Assembly: GCA_031275285.1 (NCBI GenBank)
Contig: JAISOY010000173.1
Location: 1,098 to 65,097, forward strand
DNA: 64,000 nt
Source of the DNA: Bacteroidales bacterium
GTDB lineage: Bacteria > Bacteroidota > Bacteroidia > Bacteroidales > UBA4181
Direction: 5' to 3'
Under the pieces are notes generated by a model. The model did not search any database and was not told the DNA's origin. It saw nothing but the letters and a program-made list of their open reading frames with translations. Made by a program: the position numbers and the translations under genes. Below are positions 25,751 to 52,923 of the stretch, piece by piece. Every line of letters begins with the position of its first letter. Position 1 is the first letter of the stretch.

Positions 25751-26776
25751 ATGATACAGATTAAAAAGATAAATATAAAACATATCCTTATTTTTCTGTT
25801 TGCCACACTGCTTTATGCTTTGTGTCAAATGCTTTTCAGTGCTATTCTGATGAAAGAAGATTTAGGGGATAAATTTCTGATTCAGCTACTATCCCACTAT
25901 GTCGTAATCTTTACCATGTGTATCGCAGATTACCTGTTATTACTATTCCTGAATAAGTATATACCCTATTCCAAAAACATATTACTCCGTGTCATAGCAG
26001 ACTTTGTTGGGGTAATCGTAATATGCCTGATTGTATTGGGTATGTTCAATTACCTGATATATGATGTACTTCTTATTTCAAAAGACGGGCTGCCTTCTTT
26101 CCTTGTCAAATTTGCATTTGGGATGACAAACAATATCCCTATCCTGTTGGCATTTGAGCTGATCCACTACTTCCAATCCGAACAAAAAGCCATCGCTGAT
26201 TCCGAGAAAGCAAAACGTGAAGCATTGCTGTTCGAACATGAAACGCTGAGGTCGCAGATAAACCCGCATTTTCTGTTTAACTCGCTGAATGTATTATCGT
26301 CATTAATCTATATGAATCCGGACAATGCGAATAAGTTCACCAAAGCCCTCTCAAAAACTTATCGCTATGTGCTTTCTTTAAACCGCCGACCAATGGTTTC
26401 TGTTGAAGAAGATTTGGACGCACTGGAATCATATATCTTCCTAATGGAAATGAGATTTGAAAACTCTTTTACTTTTACGGTAAACAAAACGTGCGCCTGT
26501 GAAAAGAAGATGATTATTCCCCTTACCCTGCAATTACTGATAGAGAACGTATTCAAGCATAATGTAGCAACCGAAGAAATGCCATTGGATATAAAAATTA
26601 CTATCGGGAGTGAATACATTACAGTTGAGAACAATATCCAGCCCTCGAATGATGTGGATAAAGGAGGAATCGGACTGAAATATCTCACAAAGCAATATAA
26701 ACTGTATGCCAAAGAGGTAGTCGTTGAGCATACTCCCCAAGTGTTTATTGTAAAAATCCCCTATATACAACCATGA
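25751..26776 (+). CDS. LytS/YehU-type sensor histidine kinase
   Basis: Multi-TM N-terminus. The His_kinase motif LRSQINPHFLFNSLN and ATPase motifs LLIENVFKHN and GGIGL are present. Confidence 0.85.
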   Translation: MIQIKKINIKHILIFLFATLLYALCQMLFSAILMKEDLGDKFLIQLLSHYVVIFTMCIADYLLLLFLNKYIPYSKNILLRVIADFVGVIVICLIVLGMFNYLIYDVLLISKDGLPSFLVKFAFGMTNNIPILLAFELIHYFQSEQKAIADSEKAKREALLFEHETLRSQINPHFLFNSLNVLSSLIYMNPDNANKFTKALSKTYRYVLSLNRRPMVSVEEDLDALESYIFLMEMRFENSFTFTVNKTCACEKKMIIPLTLQLLIENVFKHNVATEEMPLDIKITIGSEYITVENNIQPSNDVDKGGIGLKYLTKQYKLYAKEVVVEHTPQVFIVKIPYIQP

Positions 26777-27525
26777 AGTACCTGATAGTAGAAGATGAGC
26801 GGTTTGCATACGAAGAACTGAAACGCATGATGACGGAGTTACGTCCCGATTATTCGTTGGAGAAGCGGACGAAAACAGTCGTAGACACCATTGCGTTTTT
26901 GAAAACTTCTGCTGTCGATCTGATTTTGTTGGATATACGGCTTGCCGATGGCAACTGCTTCGAGATATTCAACCATGTAGAGGTCAGTACGCCTGTCATA
27001 TTTACCACTGCTTACGATGAACACGCTATCAAGGCATTCAAGTTGAACAGCATTGATTACCTGTTAAAACCTTTTGATGAAAAGGAACTGGAGGCGGCAT
27101 TAATCAAGTTTGAGAATATCTTCCACGATAATTCTCATAAAACCGATCCGAAGAACTTCGAGCAGATATTGGCAGCCAAAAACAAGAACCGTTTCTTGAT
27201 ATCGAAAGGAGACAATTATCATTATATAGAAACGGCGGATATTGCTCATTTTTACAGTGAAGAAGGGGTTGTATTCCTGCATACGTTTCAAAACAAACGA
27301 TATATCATCAATTACACGTTAGACCAACTGGAACAGCAGCTTGATAGCCGCCTGTTTTTTCGAGTATCACGTAATTGCATCAGTAATGTGAAGGCAATCG
27401 AAAATGTGGCTAAATACTTCAATAGCCGTTTAAAGCTCTCTTTCCAACCTGCCTGTCCTCACGAAGTGCTGGTCAGCAGGGTGCGTGTACCCGACTTTCT
27501 GAAATGGATGGACGGGATTCTTTAA
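26773..27525 (+). CDS. LytTR-family response regulator
   Basis: REC (YLIVEDE, LILLDIRL) plus a C-terminal LytTR-like region. ATGA overlap with the kinase gene. Confidence 0.88.
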   Translation: MKYLIVEDERFAYEELKRMMTELRPDYSLEKRTKTVVDTIAFLKTSAVDLILLDIRLADGNCFEIFNHVEVSTPVIFTTAYDEHAIKAFKLNSIDYLLKPFDEKELEAALIKFENIFHDNSHKTDPKNFEQILAAKNKNRFLISKGDNYHYIETADIAHFYSEEGVVFLHTFQNKRYIINYTLDQLEQQLDSRLFFRVSRNCISNVKAIENVAKYFNSRLKLSFQPACPHEVLVSRVRVPDFLKWMDGIL

Positions 27526-29272: not shown

Positions 29273-30199
29273 ATGAAGTTAGCATCATTGTTCTTAGTGG
29301 TATTGGGAACCCTTCTATGTCTGGAAGGGAAAGCACAACAATTATCGTTCAAAACCGAATATCTTGGAAATTCCGGTTATTATTTCTTGCCTCCCGGCGA
29401 AAAGCCAAGAGAGAAAATAGGCGATGCCAAAGGTTCTGTCGTAGTTTATCAGGGAGCGTTCAACATGCCCCTATCCGTGAAACTGAATGAGAACAATCGT
29501 CCGACTGCTTGGGGTATTGGTCTTGGCGGGTCATACACATCATTGAACAACAAAAATTTCACGGATCACATGGTTTCCGAAATCATGAATTTACAGGTAG
29601 GGCTTTACCACTTACGACCGTTAAACGACAAATGGTCGATGCGGGCAAGTGCGGGCGTGGCGGTACTCGCTCCTTCCGCCGATCTTTCTAAAATCAGGTT
29701 CAAGCACGTACTTGGAAGCGGAGGAATTATCTTCATCCGCCACCTGAAACCCAATCTATCTATTGGCGGCGGTGTGGCTATAAACAGTTCGTTGGGTTAT
29801 CCGATGATATTCCCTGCGGTGTATCTGAATTGGGAACTTGACGGGAAGTTCGATGTAAACGTGGAGCTGGTCGAAGGGTTGGACGTGTCGGCAGGTTATA
29901 GTTTCAACGATTGGTTTAAGCTATCGTATGCTTTAGAAATGAACGGACAGGCAGCTTTGTTGGAAAAGGACGGCAAAGATGTCATATTCTCCCACCAATA
30001 TATCGTAACGGGGTTTCGTCCCGAAATAAAGGTTGGCAAAACCGGATTATCCATGACTGCTATGGCAGGGTTGAACCTGTATCGTCCGGCTTCTTACAGC
30101 GACCGAACGCTGAAGGGAGTGTTTGCGACCGATAATGATTATTATTTCTCTGTTTCGCCATACGTGTCTTTCGGAATCAAATACAATTTCGGAAAATGA
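29273..30199 (+). CDS. putative outer-membrane beta-barrel protein
   Basis: Signal peptide MKLASLFLVVLGTLLCLEGKAQQ, alternating beta-strand pattern, C-terminal ...GIKYNFGK. ATGA overlap with the TolC-like gene. Confidence 0.55.
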   Translation: MKLASLFLVVLGTLLCLEGKAQQLSFKTEYLGNSGYYFLPPGEKPREKIGDAKGSVVVYQGAFNMPLSVKLNENNRPTAWGIGLGGSYTSLNNKNFTDHMVSEIMNLQVGLYHLRPLNDKWSMRASAGVAVLAPSADLSKIRFKHVLGSGGIIFIRHLKPNLSIGGGVAINSSLGYPMIFPAVYLNWELDGKFDVNVELVEGLDVSAGYSFNDWFKLSYALEMNGQAALLEKDGKDVIFSHQYIVTGFRPEIKVGKTGLSMTAMAGLNLYRPASYSDRTLKGVFATDNDYYFSVSPYVSFGIKYNFGK

Positions 30200-31533
30200 G
30201 GACGATTCAGGTTTTGTTTGCCCTATTGATAACAGGCAATACAGTCATGGCGCAGGAATACCCGCAGAAGTTCTCTTTGCAACAATGCCTCGACTTTGCC
30301 GTCAATAACAGCTATGCCGCGCATAGGGCAAATCTCGATGTCAGTGAGGCAGGTTATCAGATAAACGAAGCCCGGTCGAACGTATTGCCGCATATAAACG
30401 CTTCGGGCGGTTTCGACCATAGCTTGGTTTTGCCCACAACGATGTTGCCCGGCGAACTTATCGGCGAAAGCGGAACGCAAATCCCTGTTCAGATGGGTTC
30501 AAAGAACGAATTGGATTTTGACGTTTCCGTTGAACAAGTAATCTTTTCGCCAACCTTATTCACAGGAATTAAGATAGCCAAGAACAATCAGGAACTTCAA
30601 AGGCTTCGAGCAGCTATGACAAGAGAAGAAGTGATTTTCGATGTAAGCAATGCCTTCTATGACATTCTTAATAGCATGCAGGAATTGGAAAACATCCATT
30701 ATATGGTATCCATGCAGGATTCGCTTTATCAGCTAATGGAAAAACGGGTGGAAGAAAACGTAACGCGGGAAGTCGATTTGAACCGTATCAAAGTAAACCT
30801 GACCAATTTACGGGCAAGAGGCAAAAATATGAATAATACTATATTGCAGCAGAAACGTTATCTGCAAATCCTGATCGGTATTCCCATTGAAGATGCTTTT
30901 GAGGTGGACGATTCGGAAGTTCAAAGCATTGGTCTATCCGAACTCCGAGGCTACTCACAGCCACAAAACAGAATAGAACTTGATGTGCTGAATAAGCAAA
31001 AAGAAATGTTAGAACTCGAAATCCGTAGCCATAAAATGGAGTATCTGCCGACGTTATCGGCTATCGCCACCGCCGGGTATCAATTTCAGTCGAACCGGCT
31101 GAATCTGACGAGAGATCCGTGGTATAGCTCTGCCATTGTCGGCGTTCGTTTAACCATTCCAATCTTCGACGGTTTGGGCAAACGAAGCCGGATAAGACGG
31201 AAACAAACACAACTGCAAAGTTTGGATTGGGATATTCGGGAAACCCGCCAAAGCCTGTCCGCCGATTACCTGAATGCGAGAAACGGACTGGAGATGACCT
31301 ATGAGTTGGTGCAAGTGCAATCCGAGAACCTGAAACTGGCAGAGAAAGTATATACCCAAACAATGGCATTATATACCGAAGGTTTGGCGAGTATAACAGA
31401 CCTCCTTGAAACGGAAACCTCTCTGCATGAAGTAAAAATAGCCTATACCACAGAACTTATCCGCTACAAAAAGACAGAAATAGATTTGTTGAAAGCAAGC
31501 GGCACACTTAAATACTTATTAAGCAACAATTAA
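30196..31533 (+). CDS. TolC family outer-membrane efflux protein
   Basis: 445 aa. Signal peptide and two OEP-like repeats (LSLQQCLDFAVNNS..., coiled segments). Confidence 0.88.
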   Translation: MRTIQVLFALLITGNTVMAQEYPQKFSLQQCLDFAVNNSYAAHRANLDVSEAGYQINEARSNVLPHINASGGFDHSLVLPTTMLPGELIGESGTQIPVQMGSKNELDFDVSVEQVIFSPTLFTGIKIAKNNQELQRLRAAMTREEVIFDVSNAFYDILNSMQELENIHYMVSMQDSLYQLMEKRVEENVTREVDLNRIKVNLTNLRARGKNMNNTILQQKRYLQILIGIPIEDAFEVDDSEVQSIGLSELRGYSQPQNRIELDVLNKQKEMLELEIRSHKMEYLPTLSAIATAGYQFQSNRLNLTRDPWYSSAIVGVRLTIPIFDGLGKRSRIRRKQTQLQSLDWDIRETRQSLSADYLNARNGLEMTYELVQVQSENLKLAEKVYTQTMALYTEGLASITDLLETETSLHEVKIAYTTELIRYKKTEIDLLKASGTLKYLLSNN

Positions 31534-31535
31534 AA

Positions 31536-32594
31536 ATGAAATCCAAAATAGTAACCCCAATTATAGTAACCGTTTCCATTGTCGGTCTTATCGCATGGAA
31601 GCTGGTCGATAATAAACAGGCCATTGACCGGAATGCTGAATTATCATTGACCGTAAACACAGTCGTTCCCGTTATGGTTGAGAAACCCCGATATGTGGAG
31701 TTGAGTGAAAAAATCAGCGTAAACGGTCGTATTGATTCGGAAAACGAGGTAGCTGTTTATTCAAAGACACAGGGTATTGTCATAAAGAAATACAATAAGG
31801 TAGGCGATGTTGTCAGCCGGGGGACGGTAATCGCTCAACTTGAAAATAACGTAATACGGGAAAACCTGCGGCTCTCCGAACTGGATTTAGCGAAAGCGCA
31901 AAAAGATGTAGAGCGTTTTCAAAACCTTGTATCCATTGGCGCGGTAACGGTACGGGAACTGGAAGAATCCCAAATTACCTTACGCAGTATTGAGAGTAGG
32001 ATAACAGACCTACAAGACCAACTTCGCCATACGACCATTACGTCCCCCACCTCCGGCATCATTAACAAAGATTATTTCGAAGAAGGGACATTGCTTTCTG
32101 TTGGTAGTAGTGTTGTGGATATTGTGGATAATAAAATATTGAAAATGGTTGCCAATGTAACCGAAAAGGAAGTATTAAAGCTAAAAGTAGGCATGGAAGC
32201 GGTCATTACGACAGACCTATATCCCGGCAACACATTTACAGGCACAATCGAGGCTATTTCTCCTAAAAGCAACGACAGATACTATTATTCAGTAGAATTG
32301 TCATTGAACGACCATCAACTCAAACCCGGTATGTTCGCCACCGCTATTTTTAATGTGGACGGGAATAACTGCAATACTCCCGTAGTAAGCCGGGAGGCTA
32401 TTGTCGGCGGACTAAAAGCCCCTCATGTGTTTGTGATACGAGATTCTAAAGCCTATAAAGTAGCCGTACAGGTTGGCATTTCGGACGGAGAATATATTGA
32501 AATAGCCGATGGTATATCGTCTGGTGATACCATTGTGAAAAGCGGACAAATCAATTTGATTGATGGTACAGAGGTATCCATTCTAAACTTATAA
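31536..32594 (+). CDS. RND efflux periplasmic adaptor (MFP/HlyD family)
   Basis: N-terminal anchor, lipoyl/hairpin/beta-barrel pattern (ITSPTSGIINKDYFEEG). Located between the TolC-like and RND genes. Confidence 0.9.
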   Translation: MKSKIVTPIIVTVSIVGLIAWKLVDNKQAIDRNAELSLTVNTVVPVMVEKPRYVELSEKISVNGRIDSENEVAVYSKTQGIVIKKYNKVGDVVSRGTVIAQLENNVIRENLRLSELDLAKAQKDVERFQNLVSIGAVTVRELEESQITLRSIESRITDLQDQLRHTTITSPTSGIINKDYFEEGTLLSVGSSVVDIVDNKILKMVANVTEKEVLKLKVGMEAVITTDLYPGNTFTGTIEAISPKSNDRYYYSVELSLNDHQLKPGMFATAIFNVDGNNCNTPVVSREAIVGGLKAPHVFVIRDSKAYKVAVQVGISDGEYIEIADGISSGDTIVKSGQINLIDGTEVSILNL

Positions 32595-32597
32595 AAC

Positions 32598-35500
32598 ATG
32601 AACATCATAAAAATGTCAATCACTCGTCCGACTACCGTTGTCGTGATGTTTGTCATACTCGCTTTTTTCGGCGTTTATTCTTTGACACAGCTTAATAGGG
32701 AATTAATGCCCCGCATGGAGTTTGACGTTATTTCCATCAGCACCCTATATCCGGGAGCAGGAGCCTGCGAAGTAGAAAATTCCGTAACCAAAAAGATAGA
32801 AGATGCCGTCTCTTCTATCGAAGGAATTGAAGAGATTACTTCTACCTCAATAGAAAACTTCTCTTTGGTAACTATCCGGTTAAAGGCCGAAAGTAATTTG
32901 GATAAAGCCATTCAAAATGCACAGCGAAAGGTAAATGCCATACGTTCCGATCTGCCAGAGAGCGTGAAAGAACCGTCTATCAATGATTTCAGCCTCGCAG
33001 ATATTCCCATTATGACAATCGGAACAGTCGCCAATATGGGCGAAACCGGATTTTATGACCTTATCGACCACGAAATAAAACCCGCTTTGGAGAGAATACC
33101 TGGTGTGGCACAAGTTACACTTATCGGTGGGAATGAACGTGAAATACAGGTAAATATCAATGAGGAAAGAATGGCGGCATACGGGCTTTCCATTCTCGAC
33201 ATTAGTAATGTATTGATTAACTCTAACCTTGACTTCCCTACCGGAAAAATAAAAAGCAACAATAAACAAACGCAAATCCGTTTACAGGGGAAATATAACA
33301 GCCTTGCCGATATTGAGAATGTGATATTGAAGTATTTGCCCGATGGAACAGCCGTAAAAGTGAAGAATGTTGCGGATGTACACGATGGGAGCAAGGAAGT
33401 CGAAACCCTTAGCCGGATAAATGGAATACCATCTATCGGTATCACAATACAACGTTCTGCTGATGCCAATACCGTAGAAATATCCGAAACAACACGGAGG
33501 ATACTGGATGCCTTAGAATCAGAATATGAAGCCTCCGGGTTACACTTCACGATAGCGGCTGATAATGCCGAATTTACATTGGAAGCCTCCAACTCTGTAA
33601 TGATCGACCTTGTAATAGCCATCATTCTGGTAGCCTTTACAATGCTACTCTTTTTATGCAGTGTGCGAAACTCCATTATTGTTTCCATAGCCATTCCGCT
33701 ATCGCTCGTTTCCACGTTCATCGTCATGTATCTATTTGGTTTCAGCCTTAACCTGATGTCGCTGTTAGCTATAACACTTGTAGTTGGTATTTTGGTTGAT
33801 GATGCCATTGTCGTTATTGAGAATATCCACCGCCACATGGAAATGGGGAAAAACAGAATGCAGGCGGCATACGACGGGCTTCGGGAGATAGGCGGTACAA
33901 TCGTTTCCATTACGCTGGTGCTGGTGGTCGTATTTATCCCTATTTCTCTGACACAAGGCATTATTGCCAATGTATTCCGCCAATTTGCCGTTACTATCGC
34001 CATCGCCGTACTGTTCAGCCTGTTGGTTTCATTTACCGTAGTACCGTTGCTTTACTCCCGATTTGGAAAGATAAACGAGTTCAACCGTGAGGGCTTTATC
34101 GGACGAGGCATTCAGGCTCTCGAGAACCGAATAGAGAGGATAGCCAAATGGTTTTCAAGTCTTTTAGCTTGGTCTTTGTCGCATAAGCTGATTACGTTGC
34201 TGGTTACTCTTATGGCTCTGACAGGCTCTGTAAGCCTGATAGCATTCGGTTTTATCGGAAGCAACTTCGCGCCGATGGGCGATCAGGGACAATTTGTGAT
34301 GAAGCTGGAACTGCCCCGCGATGTTACAATCGAACAATCCAACCAGATCACTTACCAAGCTGAAAATATTTTGAGAAGTAGCCCCTTAGTCGAAACCGTA
34401 TTTACCACCGTAGGCGCAGAAGAAAACGGACAACCACAAGCCCGTTTAGCAGACCTGCGGGTAAAGATGATTCCACATAACCGGCGCAATATTTCAACTT
34501 CCGATTTCTCACGGGAAGCTAAACTTTTTCTACAACAGCACATACCCGGAGCGCAAATATGGGTGGCAACAACCGACCTGATGGGGAATATAGATGAAGC
34601 TCCGATACAGTATTACATTATCGGACATCATATTGATTCCGTGCGGATGGCAGCCGATCGTCTTCTCCATAATATAAAATCCGTAAAAGGGATAATCGAT
34701 CCCAAATTATCAGCCGAAGAAAGCAGTCCCGAAATCAGTATCATTCCCGACCGTGAAAAGATGGCGGCTTTAGGAATCCCTTTTGAAATGTTAGGCATGG
34801 CGTTGGGTAACGCATTTGCCGGAAACAACGATGCAAAATTCAGGCAAAACGAATATGAATACGACATCAATATACGCCTTGATAATTTCGACCGCAGGAG
34901 TATGGCAGACGTTGAAAACCTTACATTCATAAATACCTTCGGCGAAGCCATCAAACTGAAACAGTTTGCACGAATAGAAGAAAGCAATGCGCCGGGTATT
35001 TTGGAACGCCGTAACCGTAGTGCTTGCATAACGCTGAATTGTCAGGTCGGCACTCGTCCCATCGGCGACATCGGGCAGGACATTAGCCAAATAATAAACT
35101 CCCTCGATTTGCCGGAAAACATCACGATAATTCCCGGTGGCGAACTTGAAATGCAGGACGAAAGTTTTGGTACAATGGGCGTGGCGCTCATCATTTCCAT
35201 TCTGTTGGTTTATCTCATCATGGTATTATTATACAATAACTACGTCTATCCCTTTGTCGTATTAATCTCTATTCCTCTTGCTATAATCGGCGCACTGCTC
35301 GCTTTGGCTCTGACGATGGATACCCTAAACCTGTTTACCCTGTTGGGCTTACTTGCACTCATAGGGCTTGTCGCCAAAAACGCCATCATCTTAGTCGATT
35401 TCACTAACCAGTCGAAAGAAAAAGGCATGGAACTGAAAGCCGCTCTCATCGAAGCCACCCGCCAACGCTTTCGCCCAATCCTAATGACAACGGCTGCAAC

Positions 35501-35702
35501 GGTAATAGGTATGCTTCCTATTGCATTGGCAACCGGAGCAGGAGCCGAATGGAAAAACGGTCTGGCTTGGGTTATGATCGGGGGATTGGTTAGTTCAATG
35601 TTTCTAACGCTTATTGTCGTGCCGGTGGTTTATTACGTGATGGATAAAATGTTGGCAAAAGTGGGATTGGGTAAGAAAAAAGTTATTGAAATAAAAGAAT
35701 AA
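32598..35702 (+). CDS. RND efflux transporter permease (AcrB/HAE1 family)
   Basis: 1034 aa with 12-TM architecture. The N-terminus MSITRPTTVVVMFV and the segment GILVDDAIVVIENI are typical of this family. Confidence 0.93.
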   Translation: MNIIKMSITRPTTVVVMFVILAFFGVYSLTQLNRELMPRMEFDVISISTLYPGAGACEVENSVTKKIEDAVSSIEGIEEITSTSIENFSLVTIRLKAESNLDKAIQNAQRKVNAIRSDLPESVKEPSINDFSLADIPIMTIGTVANMGETGFYDLIDHEIKPALERIPGVAQVTLIGGNEREIQVNINEERMAAYGLSILDISNVLINSNLDFPTGKIKSNNKQTQIRLQGKYNSLADIENVILKYLPDGTAVKVKNVADVHDGSKEVETLSRINGIPSIGITIQRSADANTVEISETTRRILDALESEYEASGLHFTIAADNAEFTLEASNSVMIDLVIAIILVAFTMLLFLCSVRNSIIVSIAIPLSLVSTFIVMYLFGFSLNLMSLLAITLVVGILVDDAIVVIENIHRHMEMGKNRMQAAYDGLREIGGTIVSITLVLVVVFIPISLTQGIIANVFRQFAVTIAIAVLFSLLVSFTVVPLLYSRFGKINEFNREGFIGRGIQALENRIERIAKWFSSLLAWSLSHKLITLLVTLMALTGSVSLIAFGFIGSNFAPMGDQGQFVMKLELPRDVTIEQSNQITYQAENILRSSPLVETVFTTVGAEENGQPQARLADLRVKMIPHNRRNISTSDFSREAKLFLQQHIPGAQIWVATTDLMGNIDEAPIQYYIIGHHIDSVRMAADRLLHNIKSVKGIIDPKLSAEESSPEISIIPDREKMAALGIPFEMLGMALGNAFAGNNDAKFRQNEYEYDINIRLDNFDRRSMADVENLTFINTFGEAIKLKQFARIEESNAPGILERRNRSACITLNCQVGTRPIGDIGQDISQIINSLDLPENITIIPGGELEMQDESFGTMGVALIISILLVYLIMVLLYNNYVYPFVVLISIPLAIIGALLALALTMDTLNLFTLLGLLALIGLVAKNAIILVDFTNQSKEKGMELKAALIEATRQRFRPILMTTAATVIGMLPIALATGAGAEWKNGLAWVMIGGLVSSMFLTLIVVPVVYYVMDKMLAKVGLGKKKVIEIKE

Positions 35703-38244: not shown

Positions 38245-39117
38245 ATGCATGATTATACAATGGAAAAAAGCAAAGAATTATCAATAGTTAAAGAACTTAC
38301 AAACGTAAATGATGACAGTCGCATTGCCGTAAATGACATTGGATGGACAAGCCGTGTTTATATCGTAGATAATGGGTTGTTTGTATTTAAATTCCTGAAA
38401 AACAGGGAGTATAAAGAGGAACTCGAACATGAGATAAACATATTGAAACGAATAAGGGAATACGAGTTTAATGTAAATATTCCTTTAATCAATCATATCG
38501 GTGAAGATACCGCTTACATTGGTTTTCGTGGTGTGGCAGGAAAGTCTATGACAACAGAAATCGTTCGTAAACTGAACGAAGAGCAAAAAAGAAAAATCGG
38601 CACTCAAATAGGCTTGTTCTTAAAAAAACTTCATGCTATTGATTACAAAGGTGAAAGCCCGAATGATGAAAACAGTATAATCGAATGGTTTCAAGCATCT
38701 TTCAGTAAGGGAAAGCGCACATTGGAAAAATATTTTAATGAAAAAGAACTCAATTCCATTGAAGAGCTTGTAACAAGTCTACCACAAAAATCGGCAAAGC
38801 TTGGTATAGAAGAAGTTTTTTGTCATGGAGATTTAGGTTATAATAATATTCTGTTAACCGATGATTTTGAGGTTGGCATAATAGATTTTGGCGATGCCGG
38901 AAATCTTGATAAATCGTATGATTTTATTGGAATTGAAGACGATACTATTTTGGATGCAGCAATATTAATGTATGGCGATAACGACGTTTTAAGGGAAAAA
39001 GTCGCCGTAAGACGACAATTGCTTCCGCTGATGGAAATGTTATTTCTGATTGACCGAAAAGAATGGGACGAAGTAAAAATATGTGCAGACAAAATGCGCG
39101 TTAATGTAATTTCCTAA
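38245..39117 (+). CDS. aminoglycoside phosphotransferase (APH) family protein, APH(2'')-like motifs
   Basis: Kinase-fold motifs FCHGDLGYNNILL (HGDxxxxN) and IIDFGDAGNLDKSYDF. About 290 aa. Confidence 0.75.
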   Translation: MHDYTMEKSKELSIVKELTNVNDDSRIAVNDIGWTSRVYIVDNGLFVFKFLKNREYKEELEHEINILKRIREYEFNVNIPLINHIGEDTAYIGFRGVAGKSMTTEIVRKLNEEQKRKIGTQIGLFLKKLHAIDYKGESPNDENSIIEWFQASFSKGKRTLEKYFNEKELNSIEELVTSLPQKSAKLGIEEVFCHGDLGYNNILLTDDFEVGIIDFGDAGNLDKSYDFIGIEDDTILDAAILMYGDNDVLREKVAVRRQLLPLMEMLFLIDRKEWDEVKICADKMRVNVIS

Positions 39118-43330: not shown

Positions 43331-43363
43331 TTTGGGTAGTATCGAAAAAAATCAATATATTTG
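43331..43363 (+). promoter_or_regulatory. Bacteroidetes-type promoter candidate for the defence operon
   Basis: TTTG (43331-43334), a 21-nt spacer, then TATATTTG (43356-43363, fits TAnnTTTG), 35 nt upstream of the ATG at 43398. Confidence 0.5.
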
Positions 43364-43397
43364 CAAAATATACCAACTAATTAGTAAGAAAGAAGAG

Positions 43398-43589
43398 ATG
43401 AACAGACTTAAAGCGGTATTAGCCGAGCAGCGTCGTACAGGTAAATGGCTTGCAGAAACCCTAGGAAGAGATCAATCCACGGTATCTAGATGGTGTTCAA
43501 ATAAAAGCCAGCCTCCTATGGATACAATGCATAAAATAGCGAATTTGTTAGATATTGATGTTAAAGAGCTTATAATTTCAACAAAATAA
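43398..43589 (+). CDS. XRE/Cro-C1-type HTH protein (controller C-protein-like)
   Basis: 63 aa. GKWLAETLGRDQSTVSRWCSNKSQP is a classic HTH_3 pattern. It is the first gene of the methyltransferase operon. Confidence 0.8.
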   Translation: MNRLKAVLAEQRRTGKWLAETLGRDQSTVSRWCSNKSQPPMDTMHKIANLLDIDVKELIISTK

Positions 43590-43595
43590 CCTGAA

Positions 43596-44867
43596 ATGGA
43601 ACAATACATACAATATATACATTTCGATAATGTACCTGTTAATCCTGACTGGTGCTTTAAGAATGTGCGTTCTACAGAACAATGGACACATGGATACCAT
43701 AGATATCCTGCTAAATTCTTACCCAATTTAGTGAAAAAGTTAATAGAAGAATATACTCAAGAAGATGATTTAGTGGCAGATATGTTTGCGGGATGTGGAA
43801 CAACTCTTGTTGAAGCGAAAATACATGGCCGAAAATCTGTTGGAGTTGATATTAATCCTGTAGCAGAGTTAATAACACGAGCTAAAATAAATCCAATAAA
43901 TCCAGAGAAGCTAACTAAAAGATATAATAAAATAATTAAAAGATTAGATCAGTTTTCTCAAACAGATTATATGAATCTATCTGTTCATGAAAAAATTGAT
44001 TACTGGTTTTTTCCTGAGCATAAAGCGAAAATAGCGTTTTTATATAATGAAATTACATCAATTAAGAATACAAAAGAAAAAGAGTTTTTCCTCGTTTCGC
44101 TTTCTCACATTCTCAAAAATTGCTCAAAATGGTTACAATCAAGCACTAAACCTCAAATTGATCCTAAAAAGAAACCTTCTGACCCTTTTGACGCATTTCA
44201 GTTACATTCAAGACAGATGATGAACAAAAATTCAGATTTTTATTCACAGCTAGTAACTAATGATTTTTTAAATGTTAGATGTGATATAAAGTTAGAAGAT
44301 GCTAGAAAAACATCAATAAAATCTAATTCAGTTGCAGCTATTGTCACATCACCACCATATGTAACCTCTTATGAATATGCAGATATTCATCAACTGACAG
44401 GATATTGGTATGAATACATAGAAAATTTAGCAGACTTTAGAAGAAATTTTATTGGTACATTTTATTCATTAAATCAAAATTTAGAATGTGAGTCAAGACT
44501 AGCTCAGGATATTGTCAGCCAGCTATTAAAGAAAGACCCTCGAACAGCAAAAGAGGTAGCGAATTATTTTAAAGACATGTCTGATGTAGGAAAAGAAATG
44601 CATAGAATACTTAGAAAAGGTGGTCATGCTTGTCTTGTAATAGGAAATACAACATTTAAAAACATAAAAATAAAATCAGCCGAGGTTATTGCGGATTTAC
44701 TTATCTTATTAGGATTTGAAATTGTTGAAGTAATAAAAAGAAGTATTCCTAATAAGTTAATACCGACAATAAGAGATGAAGTTACAGGCAAATTTTCTAA
44801 ACTAGAAAATGCAAATAGTAAACTTGTTTATCCTGAAGAATACATATTAATAGTAAAGAAAATATGA
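43596..44867 (+). CDS. amino-DNA methyltransferase (N4-C or N6-A), motif I before motif IV
   Basis: HRYPAKFLP, SAM motif DMFAGCGTT (aa 62-70), GVDINP, catalytic TSPPY (aa 251-255). Confidence 0.88.
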   Translation: MEQYIQYIHFDNVPVNPDWCFKNVRSTEQWTHGYHRYPAKFLPNLVKKLIEEYTQEDDLVADMFAGCGTTLVEAKIHGRKSVGVDINPVAELITRAKINPINPEKLTKRYNKIIKRLDQFSQTDYMNLSVHEKIDYWFFPEHKAKIAFLYNEITSIKNTKEKEFFLVSLSHILKNCSKWLQSSTKPQIDPKKKPSDPFDAFQLHSRQMMNKNSDFYSQLVTNDFLNVRCDIKLEDARKTSIKSNSVAAIVTSPPYVTSYEYADIHQLTGYWYEYIENLADFRRNFIGTFYSLNQNLECESRLAQDIVSQLLKKDPRTAKEVANYFKDMSDVGKEMHRILRKGGHACLVIGNTTFKNIKIKSAEVIADLLILLGFEIVEVIKRSIPNKLIPTIRDEVTGKFSKLENANSKLVYPEEYILIVKKI

Positions 44868-44868
44868 T

Positions 44869-47091
44869 ATGGCAATTATAAAAAAAGATAGTCAACCATT
44901 TCAGCCATATGCACGATTGATGAATATTCTTGGAGATCAGCTTATTACAGACAAAAAGGTCGCTGTAATAGAAATCCTAAAGAATAGTTATGATGCGGAT
45001 GCAGATGATGTTAAAGTCCGTTTCTTTAATTTAGAAAATTATGGAAAAAAATACTTAGAAGATGATGAGTTACCATATATCGAAATAGAAGATGATGGAG
45101 ATGGTATGACTCTCGAAACAATCCAAAACGTATGGCTTAGGCCTGCCACTCCTAATAAATTAGATAAGAAAAAAAGAAAAGAAAATCATACTAAGAAAGG
45201 GCGAATTATTCAAGGAGAGAAAGGTGTTGGGCGTTTCGCAATACACAAATTGGGAGAGAGAATAGATTTATACACTAAAACGTTAGAAGGAGAAGAGGTT
45301 AGGCTAGAGATGGATTTTACCGAATATAATCCAGAAGATATAGACTTATTCAATCAACCTTCTTCCCAATATAAATTGCTAAATGAAGTTCATAATACTT
45401 GGTATGTGAATGATCCTCCTGTAGAAATAAAGAAAGAAAAAGGTACTCTTATAAGAATTCATAATCTGAGGGAGAAATGGACTTCAAAAGATTTTGAAGA
45501 TTTATATAAGTCTATTTTACGTCTTATCCCTCCGATTGATGAAAATGCTATAAAGTTAGGAGTTAATTTTATACAAGACTTTTCAATAGAATTATTCTTA
45601 AATGATAAGCTATATATTTCTAGCGAGGTTACAACTTTTAAAGATGTCGTAGAAAGAGCTCAGTTCTCAATGATCGGTGAAGTTTCTGGTGATGGTGTGT
45701 TAAAATTTGAATATAATTCGACATCTCCCAAAAGAAATTTCCATAGAAGCATTAATCTTTTGGATAAAGATAATTTGTCACAGTTTCAATACCCAACAAA
45801 AACAATTGAAGACTGGTTTATTAAATTTGGAAGAGTGCCTAGCTGTGGTAGTTTTAAATTTACGTTTTATGCTTTTAATTTAAAGAAAAGAGATAAAACT
45901 ATTATTACAGCTGAAATTGACCAATTCATTAAACAAAATTTTGTTTACTTACTAAGAGATGGGGTACGTGTATATCCATATGGAGAAAAGGGTTATGACT
46001 GGCTAGAACTAGATAAATTAAGGGCTACTATTAAAGCAGGTGATTATATTAGTTATAATGATTTAATTGGTTTTGTCTATATAAGTCAAGAAAATAATCC
46101 TAGGTTAAAAGACTCAACCAATAGACAAGGGATTATGGATGTTGATGGTGCTTTTGAAGATTTTAAGAGATTGTTAACAGAAACCACTCAAATACTAAAT
46201 ACGGAAAAGAAAATTGATGAAAACAAACTAGAGATAAATAAAAACCAAACTTATAAAGACTCCAATAATTTAGTATTAAATTCTTTTAACCTCTTTAAGT
46301 CAAGTCTTCAAAATGTAGATAATAAAGATGTATTAGAAAAAGCAAATAAGTTTCTTAAAGCTGTTAATAATCATACAACTATCATGAAAGAACGTATGGA
46401 AACAGTTGAGGATTTAGCCGGTCTTGGAATGGCTGTAGAGAGATCTTCACACGATTCTCTAACATTGCTGGCTAAAATGAGAGTAAATGTTAAAGACTTT
46501 AAAATAAAGGTGAAAAAAAAAGATTATAAGGACAAAGATATTTTGGCATTACTTGATGAACTTGATGAAAGCTTAAATTTTGTTTATGATGAAATGCAAG
46601 TTATTCAACCTTTATTTAAAAATCAACGTAAAGCCATAAAAAATATTAGCATTTATGAAACAGCTAATAAGGTAGTAAAGTATTTCAGAAGAGATATTGA
46701 CGGAAAAATTAATGTTTCAATACAAAATGATGGTGATATTACAGTAAAAACCAACGCAGGGCTTATTCTTCAAATATTAATCAATTTGCTTGATAATGCA
46801 ATTTATTGGGTTAATAAAAATGAAACATCACCAAAAGAAATAACGATCAAAATAAATTCTAAAAATGACACTCTTGTCATTGCTGATAATGGGCCTGGTA
46901 TACGTGAAGATACCATACCTCTTATATATAATGAATTTTTTTCACTAAAATCAGATGGACGTGGATTGGGACTTTATATCGTTAAAGAAATTCTTCTTAG
47001 AATTAATGGGGAAATTTCAGTTATTCAAGATGAAGATCGTAAGCTTCTTCATGGAGCAAACTTTATCATTAAATTTAATCAAGAGCAATAA
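44869..47091 (+). CDS. fusion protein: N-terminal MutL/MORC-like GHKL ATPase plus C-terminal histidine-kinase core (HisKA-like + HATPase_c)
   Basis: N-terminal: EILKNSYDA (ExxxNxxD), EDDGDGM (DxGxG), GEKGVGRFA. C-terminal: H-box ERSSHDSLTLL (His528, codon 46450-46452), N-box LINLLDNAIYW, G1 IADNGPGI, F IYNEFF, G2 GRGLGLYIV. Confidence 0.8.
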   Translation: MAIIKKDSQPFQPYARLMNILGDQLITDKKVAVIEILKNSYDADADDVKVRFFNLENYGKKYLEDDELPYIEIEDDGDGMTLETIQNVWLRPATPNKLDKKKRKENHTKKGRIIQGEKGVGRFAIHKLGERIDLYTKTLEGEEVRLEMDFTEYNPEDIDLFNQPSSQYKLLNEVHNTWYVNDPPVEIKKEKGTLIRIHNLREKWTSKDFEDLYKSILRLIPPIDENAIKLGVNFIQDFSIELFLNDKLYISSEVTTFKDVVERAQFSMIGEVSGDGVLKFEYNSTSPKRNFHRSINLLDKDNLSQFQYPTKTIEDWFIKFGRVPSCGSFKFTFYAFNLKKRDKTIITAEIDQFIKQNFVYLLRDGVRVYPYGEKGYDWLELDKLRATIKAGDYISYNDLIGFVYISQENNPRLKDSTNRQGIMDVDGAFEDFKRLLTETTQILNTEKKIDENKLEINKNQTYKDSNNLVLNSFNLFKSSLQNVDNKDVLEKANKFLKAVNNHTTIMKERMETVEDLAGLGMAVERSSHDSLTLLAKMRVNVKDFKIKVKKKDYKDKDILALLDELDESLNFVYDEMQVIQPLFKNQRKAIKNISIYETANKVVKYFRRDIDGKINVSIQNDGDITVKTNAGLILQILINLLDNAIYWVNKNETSPKEITIKINSKNDTLVIADNGPGIREDTIPLIYNEFFSLKSDGRGLGLYIVKEILLRINGEISVIQDEDRKLLHGANFIIKFNQEQ

Positions 47092-47092
47092 T

Positions 47093-48328
47093 ATGGAAGG
47101 TATTATTTTATTTGCAGATGACAATGTTTTTGATTCTGATCGACTTGAGAACAAATTATTTCATAAGTTCAATTCAAATGGCTATTTTTCTATATTACCA
47201 ATTAATAATTTAACTATTCTTGAAAAAACAGTTTCATCCATATCTACTTATAAAGCGTTGATTCTAGATTGGAATTTTAAGAGATTTGTTGATGATGAGG
47301 ATTTTGAAGATATAGAAGTGGAAGATGAAACACCATTAGAATTTTTAAGAAAAAACAAATTATATTCATTAATCTATATATATTCTCAAGATTTAATTCC
47401 TCAAGATATACAAGATGAGCTGAATGCTTTATATCCTAATAAAATATTCTTTGAGAAAAAAAATGCTACGAATGAAACAGAAAAAGAATATAACAAAATT
47501 ATCGCTGGAATTAATAAGTTTCAGGAAGAAAATACACACTTAGAAGTTCCTTTTGTGTGGAGTCAAGCTATAAACCAATCAGCTCAAGTTATATTCTCTG
47601 AATTGGAAAAAGCTGATCCGAACTGGATCAGAGAAATATATCAAACTGCGCAAACAGATGGGGCAGAGCCTAGTATTGAAGTTATAAATGTATTTCACAA
47701 TTTATTGAATGAATCAATTGTTCAGAATGATATTCTGTCAAGAGTTTTGTCTGAGTATACTGAATCTTCAAATGTGAGAAATCCAACTAGTGAACTATCT
47801 TTAGCTAAATTATATAATAGAATTTATTATACAAAATTGCTTGATACTGCTCCATTCATGACAGGGGATATTTTTAAATTTTCTGAGGAAGATTTTGCAA
47901 TATTATTTACTCCAGAATGTGATGTTTCTTCTAAGCAAGATAAAGCTCTCGAATTTTTAGTTTTCAGAAAAAATAATTTTAATGATTTTTTATCCGATAA
48001 GAAGCAATACTCAAAGGATCAGTATTCACAAATGATTAATAAACAAAAACAATCAAAAGATTTAACATCCCAGTTCAATAATGGAAATATGGCATTCCAT
48101 ATTCTTCCATCCTTTCCTTTTGATGAGACTTCATATAATATGTCTGCTTTTATTGACTTTGAATCTGCTTTTGTTGTCAAGGATACTGATTTTTTTAAGG
48201 ATAAAAGAAGCCAATATAAATTGAATTCTCCATATATTTATCAATTACGTCAGCGTTATATTGCATATATTGGACGAGTTGGAGTTCCTGCGATTCCTCA
48301 AAGTTTACGACTTTACAATTTGAAATAA
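47093..48328 (+). CDS. receiver (REC)-like domain protein with an uncharacterised ~290-aa C-terminal domain
   Basis: IILFADD (acidic pair D9/D10), ALILDWN (Asp59, codon 47267-47269), IYIYS (Ser98), FFEKK (Lys122). The start is 1 nt after the kinase stop. The rest is unrecognised. Confidence 0.6.
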   Translation: MEGIILFADDNVFDSDRLENKLFHKFNSNGYFSILPINNLTILEKTVSSISTYKALILDWNFKRFVDDEDFEDIEVEDETPLEFLRKNKLYSLIYIYSQDLIPQDIQDELNALYPNKIFFEKKNATNETEKEYNKIIAGINKFQEENTHLEVPFVWSQAINQSAQVIFSELEKADPNWIREIYQTAQTDGAEPSIEVINVFHNLLNESIVQNDILSRVLSEYTESSNVRNPTSELSLAKLYNRIYYTKLLDTAPFMTGDIFKFSEEDFAILFTPECDVSSKQDKALEFLVFRKNNFNDFLSDKKQYSKDQYSQMINKQKQSKDLTSQFNNGNMAFHILPSFPFDETSYNMSAFIDFESAFVVKDTDFFKDKRSQYKLNSPYIYQLRQRYIAYIGRVGVPAIPQSLRLYNLK

Positions 48329-48365
48329 CACTTTAGCATATTTCTTATAACCGAGAACAGATTGA

Positions 48366-50003
48366 ATGTATGATTCTCTAAAAATAAGGAAATTTGAATC
48401 CGAAATTCTGGATAAACATCATCTGAGCTTTGAATTATATTCTTACTCAGAAGATATTGTCATACCGTATTTACTACAATCCTATGGAGATATTGGACGA
48501 TACAGGGATATAATTTTAAAAAATAATATTAGCGAATTTAACTTTCAAGGCTATTTAACTAATATGACACATGGAATCAGTCACTGTATTAGATGGATAA
48601 AGAAACAGGCAAAATCTAATCACGATGAGATTCCTGATAATTTAAACATATCAGTATTTCATAATCAGATAATGGACTTTTTGAATTGGGGCGTGAGTTA
48701 TCATCTGATTGCACAGGAGTTTGTTATATGGTCAAGAGGGCTGAAATCTGCACAATTGAATGAGAAAGAGAAGACTATAAAGTTCATCAACTCCAATAAC
48801 TATAATTATTCTGACATCTATACGAAACAGCTTTTATATGGAGAACAATTACAAGGAGTATTTGAGAATTATCCACATAGTATAATGGAAGATGAGTTTT
48901 CTGAATGGGTCAAAGAAATAGATTTTTCAAAACCACCTATAGCAAATCAGATAAAATGGTCAAGAGGACAAATATCCAAATCTTTTCCACTTTTATATTC
49001 TACAATGGAAAGCATAGTCTTTCCTGAATTAATTGACGATACTGATTTAGGAGGGTACAATCTCTCACAACTCAGAAGGTTTTTTGCATTAATGTTTCTG
49101 AACTTTTATTATATTACTTGTGTCGAGTCGTTGATTGATTCAAAGTATGGAGTCCAGAATTCCTTTGGTTCAAATCCTCTAAACATAAAGAAATCTGAAA
49201 TAGACGAATTTATATCAGAAATAACCGGACTCCCATATCCTGTATCACAAGCTATAATTAAAGACTTAACATTCAATCCTGATAGTTTTCATACCAGCAT
49301 TTCTATCCAACCTTTTATCCTCTCTAGCACCAATATTTATTACATATTGCCAAATCTTTTTACCCAACTGGATCCTCAAAGAGTAATTTTAGGTGCGATG
49401 AATAAAAGCCCGGAGAAGAAAAAAGTATATGATCGATTGATCAATAAGATAGAAAAGGTAAACTTGAAAAAAATATTTGATGCTCTTTCTCAAACTGAAA
49501 AATGGAATAATTACCAAGAAAGAACCATTAAGTTCAATAATAAACAAATAAATCCAGACCTAATACTTATAGATAAAACTGAAAAATTCATATGTATTGT
49601 TGACTATAAACATTTTATTGTACCTATAACAGCATCAGAAGTGCAATTTAGAATGAATGAACTGGAAAAAGGTATTCGACAAATAGAAAACTATAAAATT
49701 GTACTGTCAAAAAAAGGTCATTTAGGAAAAGATGATATAAATAATTATGAGATTTGTGGATTATTATTAACTCATCGTCCTCTACCGATTCCAATTAAAA
49801 ACAATATTAATATCGGTATTGCAGATATGGATTCTTTTATATCTAAATTAGCTCAAAATATAAGTTTGAGAAACTTTTGGATAGATTTCTATGATTATCC
49901 TAACCATAAAGAAATAAAAAAAGAATTTTCGAAAATCGAATCAGAAGTAAATGTGACTGATTGGAAAATAATTCGCGAACAATTTTTTCTTTCATTTGAA
50001 TGA
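48366..50003 (+). CDS. large hypothetical protein with a C-terminal PD-(D/E)xK (NERD-like) nuclease motif
   Basis: INPD(398)LILIDKTEKFICIVD(413)YK(415)HF fits hhhD-x(n)-hhhDxK. The first ~390 aa are unrecognised. Confidence 0.5.
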   Translation: MYDSLKIRKFESEILDKHHLSFELYSYSEDIVIPYLLQSYGDIGRYRDIILKNNISEFNFQGYLTNMTHGISHCIRWIKKQAKSNHDEIPDNLNISVFHNQIMDFLNWGVSYHLIAQEFVIWSRGLKSAQLNEKEKTIKFINSNNYNYSDIYTKQLLYGEQLQGVFENYPHSIMEDEFSEWVKEIDFSKPPIANQIKWSRGQISKSFPLLYSTMESIVFPELIDDTDLGGYNLSQLRRFFALMFLNFYYITCVESLIDSKYGVQNSFGSNPLNIKKSEIDEFISEITGLPYPVSQAIIKDLTFNPDSFHTSISIQPFILSSTNIYYILPNLFTQLDPQRVILGAMNKSPEKKKVYDRLINKIEKVNLKKIFDALSQTEKWNNYQERTIKFNNKQINPDLILIDKTEKFICIVDYKHFIVPITASEVQFRMNELEKGIRQIENYKIVLSKKGHLGKDDINNYEICGLLLTHRPLPIPIKNNINIGIADMDSFISKLAQNISLRNFWIDFYDYPNHKEIKKEFSKIESEVNVTDWKIIREQFFLSFE

Positions 50004-52260: not shown

Positions 52261-52923
52261 CTGGCGCGCGTTTGTAACGCGTGCAATAGCCGCATTATCA
52301 AAACCATTTTCTATCATGTTGTTTACCATTTTCCAGTTACCAGACAAACATCCAATAAATAATCCATTTCAGCATAGTTTCTTGCCGAACTGAATAAATA
52401 ATCCTCAGGATAAGAGACGATCATTTCTTCTACGGGATTGCGATGGATGTAATCCAGTTTTACCTGTAAAAATTCCGGTGTGTTTATTTCTTCCGCATGA
52501 TTGCCATCCTGCCAGAGTTTATATTCCTTAATCCGTTTTAAATCCTTACCTGCTTTATAAAACAATTCCAGCATCCATGCACGCCGGCTTTCAGGTTCTT
52601 CCATAATCTGTCTGACCAGTGCTTTGGATGTATATTTTTTAAAATCACGCAGTATTCCGGATAAAGTATTGATTTCTTCTGTCTTTACAATAGCGTGCAG
52701 ATGTTTGGACATCAGGCACCAGCCAAATATCACCAGTCCTTTATTCAGTTGGCAATATTTCAGTGTATCCACAAGTAATAGTTTGTGGTTTTTCCGGGTA
52801 AACACATCTATCCATCCTACTACTACTGTCAGTGTGATGAAATATGCTTTGTCTGTATCCTTTATTTTATATTTGTCTGACATGTTATTGTTTTTAGTGG
52901 CACGCGTTACAAACGCGCGCTAG
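52261..52923. mobile_element. RAYT unit: Y1 (IS200-like, REP-associated) transposase flanked by 24-bp inverted REP-like repeats
   Basis: CTGGCGCGCGTTTGTAACGCGTGC (52261-52284) matches the reverse complement of 52900-52923 at 23/24. Each arm contains the hairpin CGCGTT-TGT-AACGCG. Confidence 0.75.
52323..52883 (-). CDS. REP-associated tyrosine transposase (RAYT, Y1/HUH family)
   Basis: HUH motif KHLHAIV and C-terminal YIHRNPV (catalytic Tyr region). 186 aa. Confidence 0.85.
   Translation of the reverse strand: MSDKYKIKDTDKAYFITLTVVVGWIDVFTRKNHKLLLVDTLKYCQLNKGLVIFGWCLMSKHLHAIVKTEEINTLSGILRDFKKYTSKALVRQIMEEPESRRAWMLELFYKAGKDLKRIKEYKLWQDGNHAEEINTPEFLQVKLDYIHRNPVEEMIVSYPEDYLFSSARNYAEMDYLLDVCLVTGKW

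Follow-up and report, generated by a model that had tools for sequence, protein, structure and literature searches.

What is a two-component signalling pair doing among the genes of a restriction-modification (R-M) system? The question is raised by a five-gene operon in a window of 64,000 nucleotides (the whole stretch of DNA that was analysed) from a Bacteroidales bacterium, contig JAISOY010000173.1. In order, its genes encode a helix-turn-helix (HTH) regulator (gene 1), an amino-DNA methyltransferase (MTase; gene 2), a fusion of a paraMORC-type GHKL ATPase with a histidine kinase (gene 3), a receiver (REC) protein (gene 4) and a PD-(D/E)xK nuclease (gene 5). Genes 2 to 4, the MTase, kinase fusion and REC protein, are referred to below as the triad, and coordinates are collected in Table 1. 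We read the operon, with a probability of about 0.6, as a Bacteroidales two-component-coupled R-M-like defence system of the Ambrosia class, with a four-gene conserved unit and the mechanism proposed below. The kind of system is already known; what differs here is the MTase family, the output domain of the REC protein and the type of nuclease.

A first-pass annotation of the window had described an AT-rich operon of five same-strand open reading frames. Re-deriving these gave identical coordinates and spacing, with gaps of 6, 1, 1 and 37 nt between neighbours on the + strand, and the guanine-cytosine (GC) content is 28-31% over 44-50 kb against ~40% in the flanks. All of its domain calls and listed motifs proved right by Pfam, PADLOC, alignments and AlphaFold/Foldseek. 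Its view that the combination was undescribed has to be given up: an association of MTase, kinase and a response-regulator-like (RR-like) protein was described in 2021 (PMC8011034), and the Ambrosia operon was validated in 2025 (10.1101/2025.09.30.679545).

Relationship to known systems

Ambrosia is a validated anti-phage system of Pseudomonas aeruginosa with the gene order AbrR-AbrA-AbrB-AbrC-AbrD (van den Berg et al., bioRxiv 10.1101/2025.09.30.679545). Its regulator AbrR is of the XRE type, AbrA is an N6 MTase, AbrB a kinase/HATPase, AbrC a REC protein and AbrD an HNH nuclease. Defence needs every gene and is lost with AbrB N40A or AbrC D60A; N40 lies in the N-terminal GHKL domain of the kinase, and the kinase histidine is not among the mutants found in that report. 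Reporters of the operon are induced on infection, and the authors propose that the REC protein acts on transcription. They report Ambrosia only from Gammaproteobacteria and give hidden Markov model thresholds of 100, 500, 150 and 200 bits for AbrA, AbrB, AbrC and AbrD, respectively.

The window operon is a divergent relative of Ambrosia whose methylase is of another family, whose receiver protein is longer and whose PD-(D/E)xK nuclease is exchangeable, and its family is found in Bacteroidota and other hosts. Gene order and logic are alike, running from an XRE regulator through a DNA MTase, a kinase with HATPase_c_3 and HATPase_c domains and a REC protein to a nuclease. Gene 3 and AbrB have the same two-GHKL layout (740 and 747 residues), and BLASTP against the Ambrosia proteins in Table S1 of 10.1101/2025.09.30.679545 aligns gene 3 with AbrB residues 1-399 at 29% identity over ~450 columns (E=1e-39). 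Residues N40 of AbrB and D60 of AbrC correspond to N39 and D59 of the window operon, which are invariant in its family, as is the kinase histidine H528. The first-pass annotation had proposed a kinase-to-receiver phosphorelay coupled to R-M-like enzymes and had made that proposal depend on conservation of H528 and D59; it is borne out by these invariant residues and by the Ambrosia mutants.

A similar association had been recognised earlier in silico. Bellieny-Rabelo et al. 2021 (PMC8011034) described soluble kinases made up of HATPase_c_3, a novel DHp and HATPase_c in genera that include Chryseobacterium, Flavobacterium and Bacteroides. In 91.6% of the 644 regions an atypical REC protein accompanied the kinase. 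A methylase lay upstream and R-M genes were close by, and the authors proposed a two-component-like system tied to R-M and paraMORCs that has a regulatory role. Gene 3 has the soluble kinase architecture of these HEF_HK/Response_reg_2 elements, including a DHp histidine followed by an acidic residue (H528-D529). Likewise, in 23/23 loci of the survey described below an atypical REC protein without other known domain adjoins the kinase, and a methylase lies immediately upstream of it. The methylases in the 2021 study are mostly C5 cytosine enzymes, often with Vsr or HNH_2 nearby, whereas the window MTase is an amino-MTase, and the C-terminal half of the RR-like protein was left unanalysed there.

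The paraMORC/MORC R-M systems are made up of a GHKL-S5 ATPase, a superfamily II (SFII) helicase, an RE-fold (restriction-endonuclease-fold) nuclease and a methylase (Iyer, Abhiman and Aravind 2008, PMC2292703). In the text of that paper the terms 'receiver' and 'two-component' are absent, and 'histidine kinase' is used only to expand the GHKL acronym. As in these systems, the window operon has an N-terminal GHKL ATPase with a conserved middle region, linked to a methylase and an RE-fold nuclease. They have a helicase, and the window operon has none.

The Detocs system, reportedly described by Rousset et al. in 2023, is said to defend by a kinase-to-receiver phosphorelay that ends in a REC-fused effector, and in this it resembles the window operon. 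It differs in that the window operon has a paraMORC ATPase as its sensor, no buffer REC protein, another effector domain and an MTase. No PADLOC model of Detocs (DtcA, DtcB, DtcC) matches any of the five proteins, and membership of Detocs is excluded by this null scan.

The kinase fusion and its receiver partner

Gene 3 matches HATPase_c_3 at its N-terminus (3e-18) and HATPase_c at its C-terminus (8e-22). From the N-terminus it has a GHKL domain (residues 1-~200), a conserved middle region interpreted as S5-like, a DHp domain with H528 (codon 46450-46452) and a catalytic domain (CA, residues 632-738); residues 505-723 align with the DHp and catalytic domains of ZraS. A further match of the N-terminus is to the GHKL region with which restriction enzymes of the BbrUII/HgiDII family begin (2.8e-18). 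In an alignment of 19 homologues, the lowest identity being 44%, the GHKL motifs are invariant (E35/N39/D44, D75-G77-G79, G116-K118-G119-G121), and so are the H-box (H528-D529) and the N, G1, F and G2 boxes (N639/N643; D673-G675-G677; F690; G697-G699-G701). No hydrophobic N-terminal segment is seen in this alignment, a view made without transmembrane prediction. Gene 3 is thereby shown here, as far as motif conservation indicates, to combine an apparently intact paraMORC-type ATPase and an apparently intact kinase within one predicted soluble protein.

Gene 4 begins with a receiver domain. D9, D59, S98, K117 and K123 are invariant in an alignment of 31 homologues and D10 is nearly so, and the AlphaFold model (predicted local distance difference test score, pLDDT, of 80) has a (beta-alpha)5 N-terminal domain. 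The best Foldseek matches to the model are all REC domains (RcsB, FixJ, XynC and LytR), with target-normalised template modelling scores (TM-scores) of 0.65-0.74; the search used the whole model against PDB and BFVD, and the REC matches masked the C-terminal domain. A profile search of 1.8 billion representative proteins yielded 367 relatives of gene 4 (50%-identity representatives, E<=0.001), which form two groups, a close family and a distant tier made up of ~400-residue proteins, and the family size is ~500 clusters at 90% identity. One distant relative, P0394, matches Response_reg PF00072 above cutoff. In a superfamily alignment of 43 sequences, the distant tier of which is only 17-24% identical to the window protein, D9, D59 and K123 of the receiver are invariant or nearly so, as are G258-D259, C276-D277, R395, G397 and P402 of the C-terminal part. 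The signature of this part reads G258-D259 ... P274-x-C276-D277 ... R395-x-G397-x-P399, hereafter GD...PxCD.

The C-terminal domain that carries this signature resembles nothing in the collections searched. Gene 4 has zero matches in Pfam, NCBIfam and PADLOC 2.0, a single-sequence search of PDB sequences gave nothing, and a profile of the C-terminal domain found nothing among PDB sequences and Pfam and was negative against the gene 5 nuclease family (hhalign). Weak matches to DUF2779, a family of the PD-(D/E)xK clan, in 2/31 family members (best E 0.0055) are unplaced within the proteins and are not relied on. In the model the C-terminal secondary structure runs helix, strand, strand, strand, helix, strand; D259 opens a strand, and E275-C276-D277 comes after the next strand. 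This modelled layout loosely recalls a restriction-endonuclease core, but position 275 varies and a lysine is lacking. The C-terminus may be an effector nuclease or a novel DNA-binding output.

A comparison with the sister island L033 places a localised change within this same domain. Protein identity between the two islands is 100% for the HTH protein, 99.8% for the MTase, 98.2% for the kinase and 97.4% for gene 5, whereas gene 4 is 71.5% identical overall and only 32-48% over residues 261-360. The blastn alignment of the window with L033 breaks inside gene 4, across the hypervariable segment listed in Table 1. Such localised replacement in the output domain of gene 4 is the pattern expected for a determinant of specificity or anti-evasion.

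Conservation of the operon across genomes

Gene order was surveyed with gene 4 as the anchor in 26 loci, one genome per species, of which 23 have a full-length gene 4. In 23/23 of these the MTase, kinase fusion and gene 4 adjoin and are co-oriented. A single MTase family is strictly co-inherited with kinase and receiver. The first-pass annotation had asked if an MTase-kinase-REC-nuclease order is conserved; the triad part of that order is, while the nuclease does not belong to it, as gene 5 is present in only 3/23 triad loci and also occurs elsewhere without the triad. The triad spans Flavobacteriia, Bacteroidia, Saprospiria and Kapaibacteria and reaches metagenome-assembled genomes (MAGs) of Campylobacter and Hyphomicrobiales. 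Its hosts include Chryseobacterium, Flavobacterium, Roseivirga, Aquirufa, Sphingobacteriales, Aureispira, Saprospiraceae and Kapaibacterium, as well as Parabacteroides, Bacteroides, Prevotellaceae, Alloprevotella and Muribaculaceae. Among plasmids, gene 4 itself had no match, and a search with a distant relative led to one conjugative plasmid of Allorhizobium (L035). This plasmid carries a distant-tier triad with overlapping reading frames and a PF01555-type MTase with TSPPY. A 265-residue protein with only weak zinc-ribbon matches lies 3' of that triad (L035 8296-9093) and is a candidate alternative partner.

The neighbours of the triad vary from one locus to the next and often belong to R-M systems. 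Type III mod and res genes flank it in L012 and L023, as if it were embedded in a Type III R-M operon. In both loci (L012 4650-13846, L023 4659-13860) the triad sits between mod (616-617 residues) and res (881-884 residues) with all genes co-oriented. An AAA_5 gene that matches PADLOC REase_II models lies 3' of gene 4 in L015 and L016, a C5 methylase with EcoRII lies 3' of the triad in L021, and a Type I HsdM takes that place in L022. L011 has a C5 methylase with BanI alongside the triad on the opposite strand, and L013 has a conjugative coupling protein (TraG family) downstream. In the long-form loci L001, L010, L019 and L034, a second, kinase-less paraMORC protein of 816-821 residues stands between MTase and kinase; it has HATPase_c_3 and weak PADLOC REase_II matches.

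In L005 the four-gene unit has a housekeeping gene on either side (a heavy-metal ATPase and HflX) and no nuclease nearby. Alanyl-tRNA synthetase is the next large gene in L006, and no nuclease was identified there among the downstream genes scanned. Because of these two loci, a neighbouring nuclease does not appear to be required. The conserved unit is the HTH regulator, MTase, kinase and REC protein, and it is able to stand alone.

An exchangeable nuclease

The PD-(D/E)xK motif of gene 5 (P397-D398-x14-D413-Y414-K415) is conserved, and its AlphaFold model has a pLDDT of 90. Foldseek places Upx first (9wuf, E=5.8e-7), followed by Card1, R2, Cdn1 and Can2, the matches all being to RE-fold cores. 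Upx is a single-gene defence protein (Gao et al. 2020), and 9wuf is its cryo-electron microscopy entry. Both proteins have an RE-fold nuclease core and 566 columns are aligned in Foldseek, but the query-normalised TM-score is only 0.37 and the identity 12%, and Upx has 1212 residues against 545 for gene 5. Gene 5 has zero matches in Pfam, NCBIfam and PADLOC 2.0.

Gene 5 is found with the triad repeatedly, in two differing arrangements, and in the triad loci of the survey that have it, it never adjoins gene 4 or gene 2. Homologues are also found without the triad. One lies beside a Upx-like gene, HsdR and an SLFN/AlbA gene (L027), another beside a complete Type I system (L030), and two are in a conjugative transposon (L031 and L032). 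Two more (L028 and L029) lie directly 3' of HsdM in Type I-like operons without HsdR. Gene 5 is therefore an exchangeable accessory nuclease outside the conserved core, and the five-gene unit that the first-pass annotation had drawn falls away.

The operons of L028 (1621-8632) and L029 (1302-8641) hold HsdS, AAA_15/AAA_21 ATPases, an unknown protein of ~295 residues, HsdM and the gene 5 homologue. HsdR was not found within ~7 kb on either side in these two loci, and the gene 5 family may replace HsdR in this Type I-like system.

The regulator and the methyltransferase

Gene 1 matches HTH_26 (3e-8) and HTH_3 (8.5e-8), with HipB a weak match, and it is the counterpart of AbrR of Ambrosia and of the C proteins of R-M systems. 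An HTH gene is detectable by tblastn 5' of the MTase in 13/23 loci. Gene 2 matches PF01555 (2e-25) and PADLOC MTase_II (2e-56), with motif I (FAGCG) at residue 64 and motif IV (TSPPY) at residue 251. Motif I thus comes before motif IV, an order that is permuted relative to the PF01555 model. TSPPY is invariant in 23/23 gene 2 homologues, the alphaproteobacterial one included. In amino-MTases SPPY is more typical of N4-cytosine than of N6-adenine enzymes, and because this motif is invariant gene 2 may be an N4-cytosine (m4C) methyltransferase.

Weighing the explanations

The case for an Ambrosia-class defence system is drawn from several sides. The architecture and gene order match Ambrosia gene for gene and gene 3 is homologous to AbrB; the catalytic residues of kinase and receiver are invariant, and structure prediction with Foldseek gives the REC fold. 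The triad is syntenic in every full-length locus surveyed and on the Allorhizobium plasmid, and the four-gene unit is self-sufficient. To these are added the mobile-element and defence/R-M neighbourhoods, the promoter box that is kept among diverged loci and the description in PMC8011034.

Several results weigh against it. No phenotype is known for the gene family. Gene 2 is of PF01555 type with SPPY, whereas AbrA is a PF02384 N6_Mtase, and the two have no significant similarity, so that their likeness is a functional analogy only. The gene 4 superfamily has no detectable similarity to AbrC (hhalign probability 0.7%); AbrC has 209 residues and is without the GD...PxCD domain, while gene 4 has 411 and an extra C-terminal domain of ~180 residues. 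The nuclease encoded by the last gene is a 545-residue PD-(D/E)xK protein that is not conserved with the core, as opposed to the 213-residue HNH protein AbrD, and a Pfam scan found no HNH domain in the five operon proteins. Genes 3, 4 and 5 are without a model in PADLOC 2.0. The families of the 2021 study, PF19191 (HEF_HK) and PF19192 (Response_reg_2), do not match genes 3 and 4 at E<=0.1, nor any of 31 family members at E<=10, 10 distant relatives or the Allorhizobium triad, although the presence of both models in the Pfam copy scanned is unconfirmed. Membership of those families is accordingly not found at the level of Pfam, while their defining architecture is present. Finally, the C-terminal domain of gene 4 has no catalytic fold recognisable by sequence and profile searches, which makes an effector role a conjecture.

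It is possible, although we consider it unlikely, that the four-gene unit is a non-defence epigenetic or regulatory module, that is, a two-component system that governs or answers to an orphan MTase, in which gene 4 is a transcription factor with a novel DNA-binding domain and gene 5 is an unrelated stand-alone defence gene lying downstream by chance. No nuclease fold is detectable in genes 2 to 4, the Ambrosia authors likewise propose that REC acts on transcription, and a regulatory role was proposed in PMC8011034. Gene 5 alone is found in defence islands, and in structure it comes closest to Upx, a defence protein that works as a single gene. A regulatory module sits poorly, however, with the sporadic, cross-phylum distribution on plasmids, in mobilizable islands and in R-M neighbourhoods, and AbrB, which among characterised proteins is the closest homologue of the kinase, is required for defence against phage. 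That near-identical islands differ in a localised hypervariable segment of gene 4 suggests an arms race, and the recurrence of gene 5 with the triad in two arrangements also counts against such a module.

The remaining alternatives place gene 5 at the centre of the locus. Genes 1, 2 and 5, with a C-protein-like HTH, a Type II-like MTase and an RE-fold nuclease, could be a classical C-protein-controlled Type II R-M system into which kinase and REC were inserted as a regulatory cassette, and the homologues directly 3' of HsdM indicate that gene 5 can partner methylases. Cognate MTase and nuclease would be expected to co-vary, yet gene 2 occurs with kinase and REC in 23/23 loci and with gene 5 in 3/23; gene 5 is found with unrelated methylases or none, and the four-gene unit occurs with no nuclease nearby (L005) or none identified (L006). 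We therefore regard a Type II system as rather improbable. It would be more surprising still if the locus were a reduced paraMORC-type R-M system (Iyer et al. 2008) in which the GHKL head and gene 5 do the mechanical work and the kinase and REC are secondary. It resembles the 'type 3' MORC operon, in which a distinct SFII helicase comes with an uncharacterised RE-fold protein (PMC2292703), and the N-terminus of gene 3 matches the BbrUII/HgiDII GHKL region noted above. No helicase is found in the window, however, and most triad loci are without helicase and without gene 5. The kinase and receiver residues are as strictly kept as the GHKL motifs, which argues that the phosphorelay is not vestigial.

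Proposed mechanism

For an Ambrosia-class system the following sequence of events can be proposed. Gene 1 would keep the operon repressed. On infection or entry of foreign DNA, the paraMORC head of gene 3 may bind or clamp DNA or sense a nucleotide cue. Gene 3 would then autophosphorylate H528 and transfer the phosphate to D59 of gene 4, a step suggested by residue conservation and by the loss of defence in Ambrosia N40A and D60A. Phosphorylated gene 4 may act through its GD...PxCD domain, either as the effector itself or as a DNA-binding activator of the operon, and gene 5, as a recruited nuclease, would supply or reinforce DNA cleavage. Gene 2 presumably modifies DNA, possibly as m4C, and the modification could serve for self-protection or create the substrate of the nuclease. 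The first-pass annotation had methylation mark self DNA, which is unsupported for the validated relative, where phage gain no protection from Ambrosia by AbrA methylation and infection induces the operon (10.1101/2025.09.30.679545).

Self-sufficiency of the unit in L005, and apparently also in L006, argues that the output lies within genes 2 to 4, most plausibly in the C-terminal domain of gene 4. One tentative idea, which we think has the odds against it, is that the GD...PxCD domain is an unrecognised effector fold, e.g., a nuclease, and that phosphorylation of D59 turns it on.

Promoter region and mobile island

The promoter-like motif named in the first-pass annotation is present upstream of gene 1 (Table 1). 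The pattern TTTG-N21-TATATTTG is not enriched in the window, with 3 matches against 3.7 expected, but a TAnnTTTG box and the GCAnnAAAnGCTAATT stretch that follows it stand at the same position 5' of the HTH gene in ~10/13 diverged loci. A 7-nt palindrome, TATATTT-GCA-AAATATA, lies at 43356-43372 and overlaps the -7 box of the promoter-like element. The stretch TAtATTTGCAnnAAAnGCTAATT (window 43356-43390) is kept just 5' of the HTH gene in L003, L004, L005, L007, L011, L022 and others; it takes in the -7 box of the promoter and a possible operator for the HTH protein, and in the window it makes up the palindrome just named. A sigma-70 promoter scan and an intrinsic-terminator scan were uninformative for this organism.

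The mobilizable island and AbiE neighbour of the earlier description were both found. A tyrosine integrase (24430-25653) is followed by a relaxase, MobC_2, DUF3408 and a ParA-like gene; AbiEii and a probable AbiEi come after the operon on the opposite strand, with an IS200-like gene and guanylate kinase at the right edge. The apparent extent of this integrative mobilizable element is 24430-52900 of the window. Its cargo also includes a lipid A acyltransferase, besides the genes listed in Table 1. Just beyond the island, at 20583-23510, a 975-residue protein with a C-terminal PDDEXK_1 may be an AddB-like repair protein or another nuclease. An rRNA operon suspected in the GC-rich block at 11-17 kb was rejected, as Rfam and ARAGORN found zero RNA genes in the whole window.

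Table 1. Features of the operon and of the mobilizable element that carries it (window coordinates)
Feature	Position	Strand	Remarks
Promoter-like element, Bacteroidetes-type	43331-43363	+	TTTG-N21-TATATTTG
Gene 1, XRE/Cro-C1-type HTH regulator	43398-43589	+	63 residues, from ATG
Gene 2, amino-DNA methyltransferase	43596-44867	+	423 residues
Gene 3, soluble paraMORC-type GHKL ATPase/histidine kinase fusion	44869-47091	+	740 residues
Gene 4, receiver protein	47093-48328	+	411 residues
Gene 4, N-terminal REC domain	47093-47476	+	Predicted phospho-acceptor D59, codon 47267-47269
Gene 4, C-terminal domain	47786-48328	+	Residues ~232-411; predicted output or effector
Gene 4, hypervariable segment within C-terminal domain	47923-48217	+	Residues ~277-375
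Gene 5, helical N-terminal region and PD-(D/E)xK nuclease core	48366-50003	+	545 residues
LytS-type kinase and LytTR regulator	25751-27525		On mobilizable element
RND efflux pump	30196-35702		On mobilizable element
APH-family phosphotransferase	38245-39117		On mobilizable element
IS200-like Y1 transposase	52323-52883		On mobilizable element

Significance

Ambrosia-type systems join two-component signalling and R-M, which are among the best-studied bacterial modules. The family described here occurs across Bacteroidota, gut genera among them, and extends to a Campylobacter MAG and to sequences from Alphaproteobacteria. This branch receives no family-level assignment from PADLOC 2.0, Pfam or NCBIfam, gene 4 has no match in them at all, and current annotation pipelines likely miss the branch. 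The four-gene unit, which often occurs without a separate nuclease, is a good system in which to ask if a receiver domain directly gates a DNA-targeting effector. If the C-terminal domain of gene 4 were indeed such an effector, HTH-MTase-kinase-REC would be a self-contained, phosphorylation-gated restriction system with a mechanism unlike that of Ambrosia, where REC is thought to be transcriptional and a separate HNH protein cuts, and the hypervariable segment would be its specificity or anti-evasion determinant.

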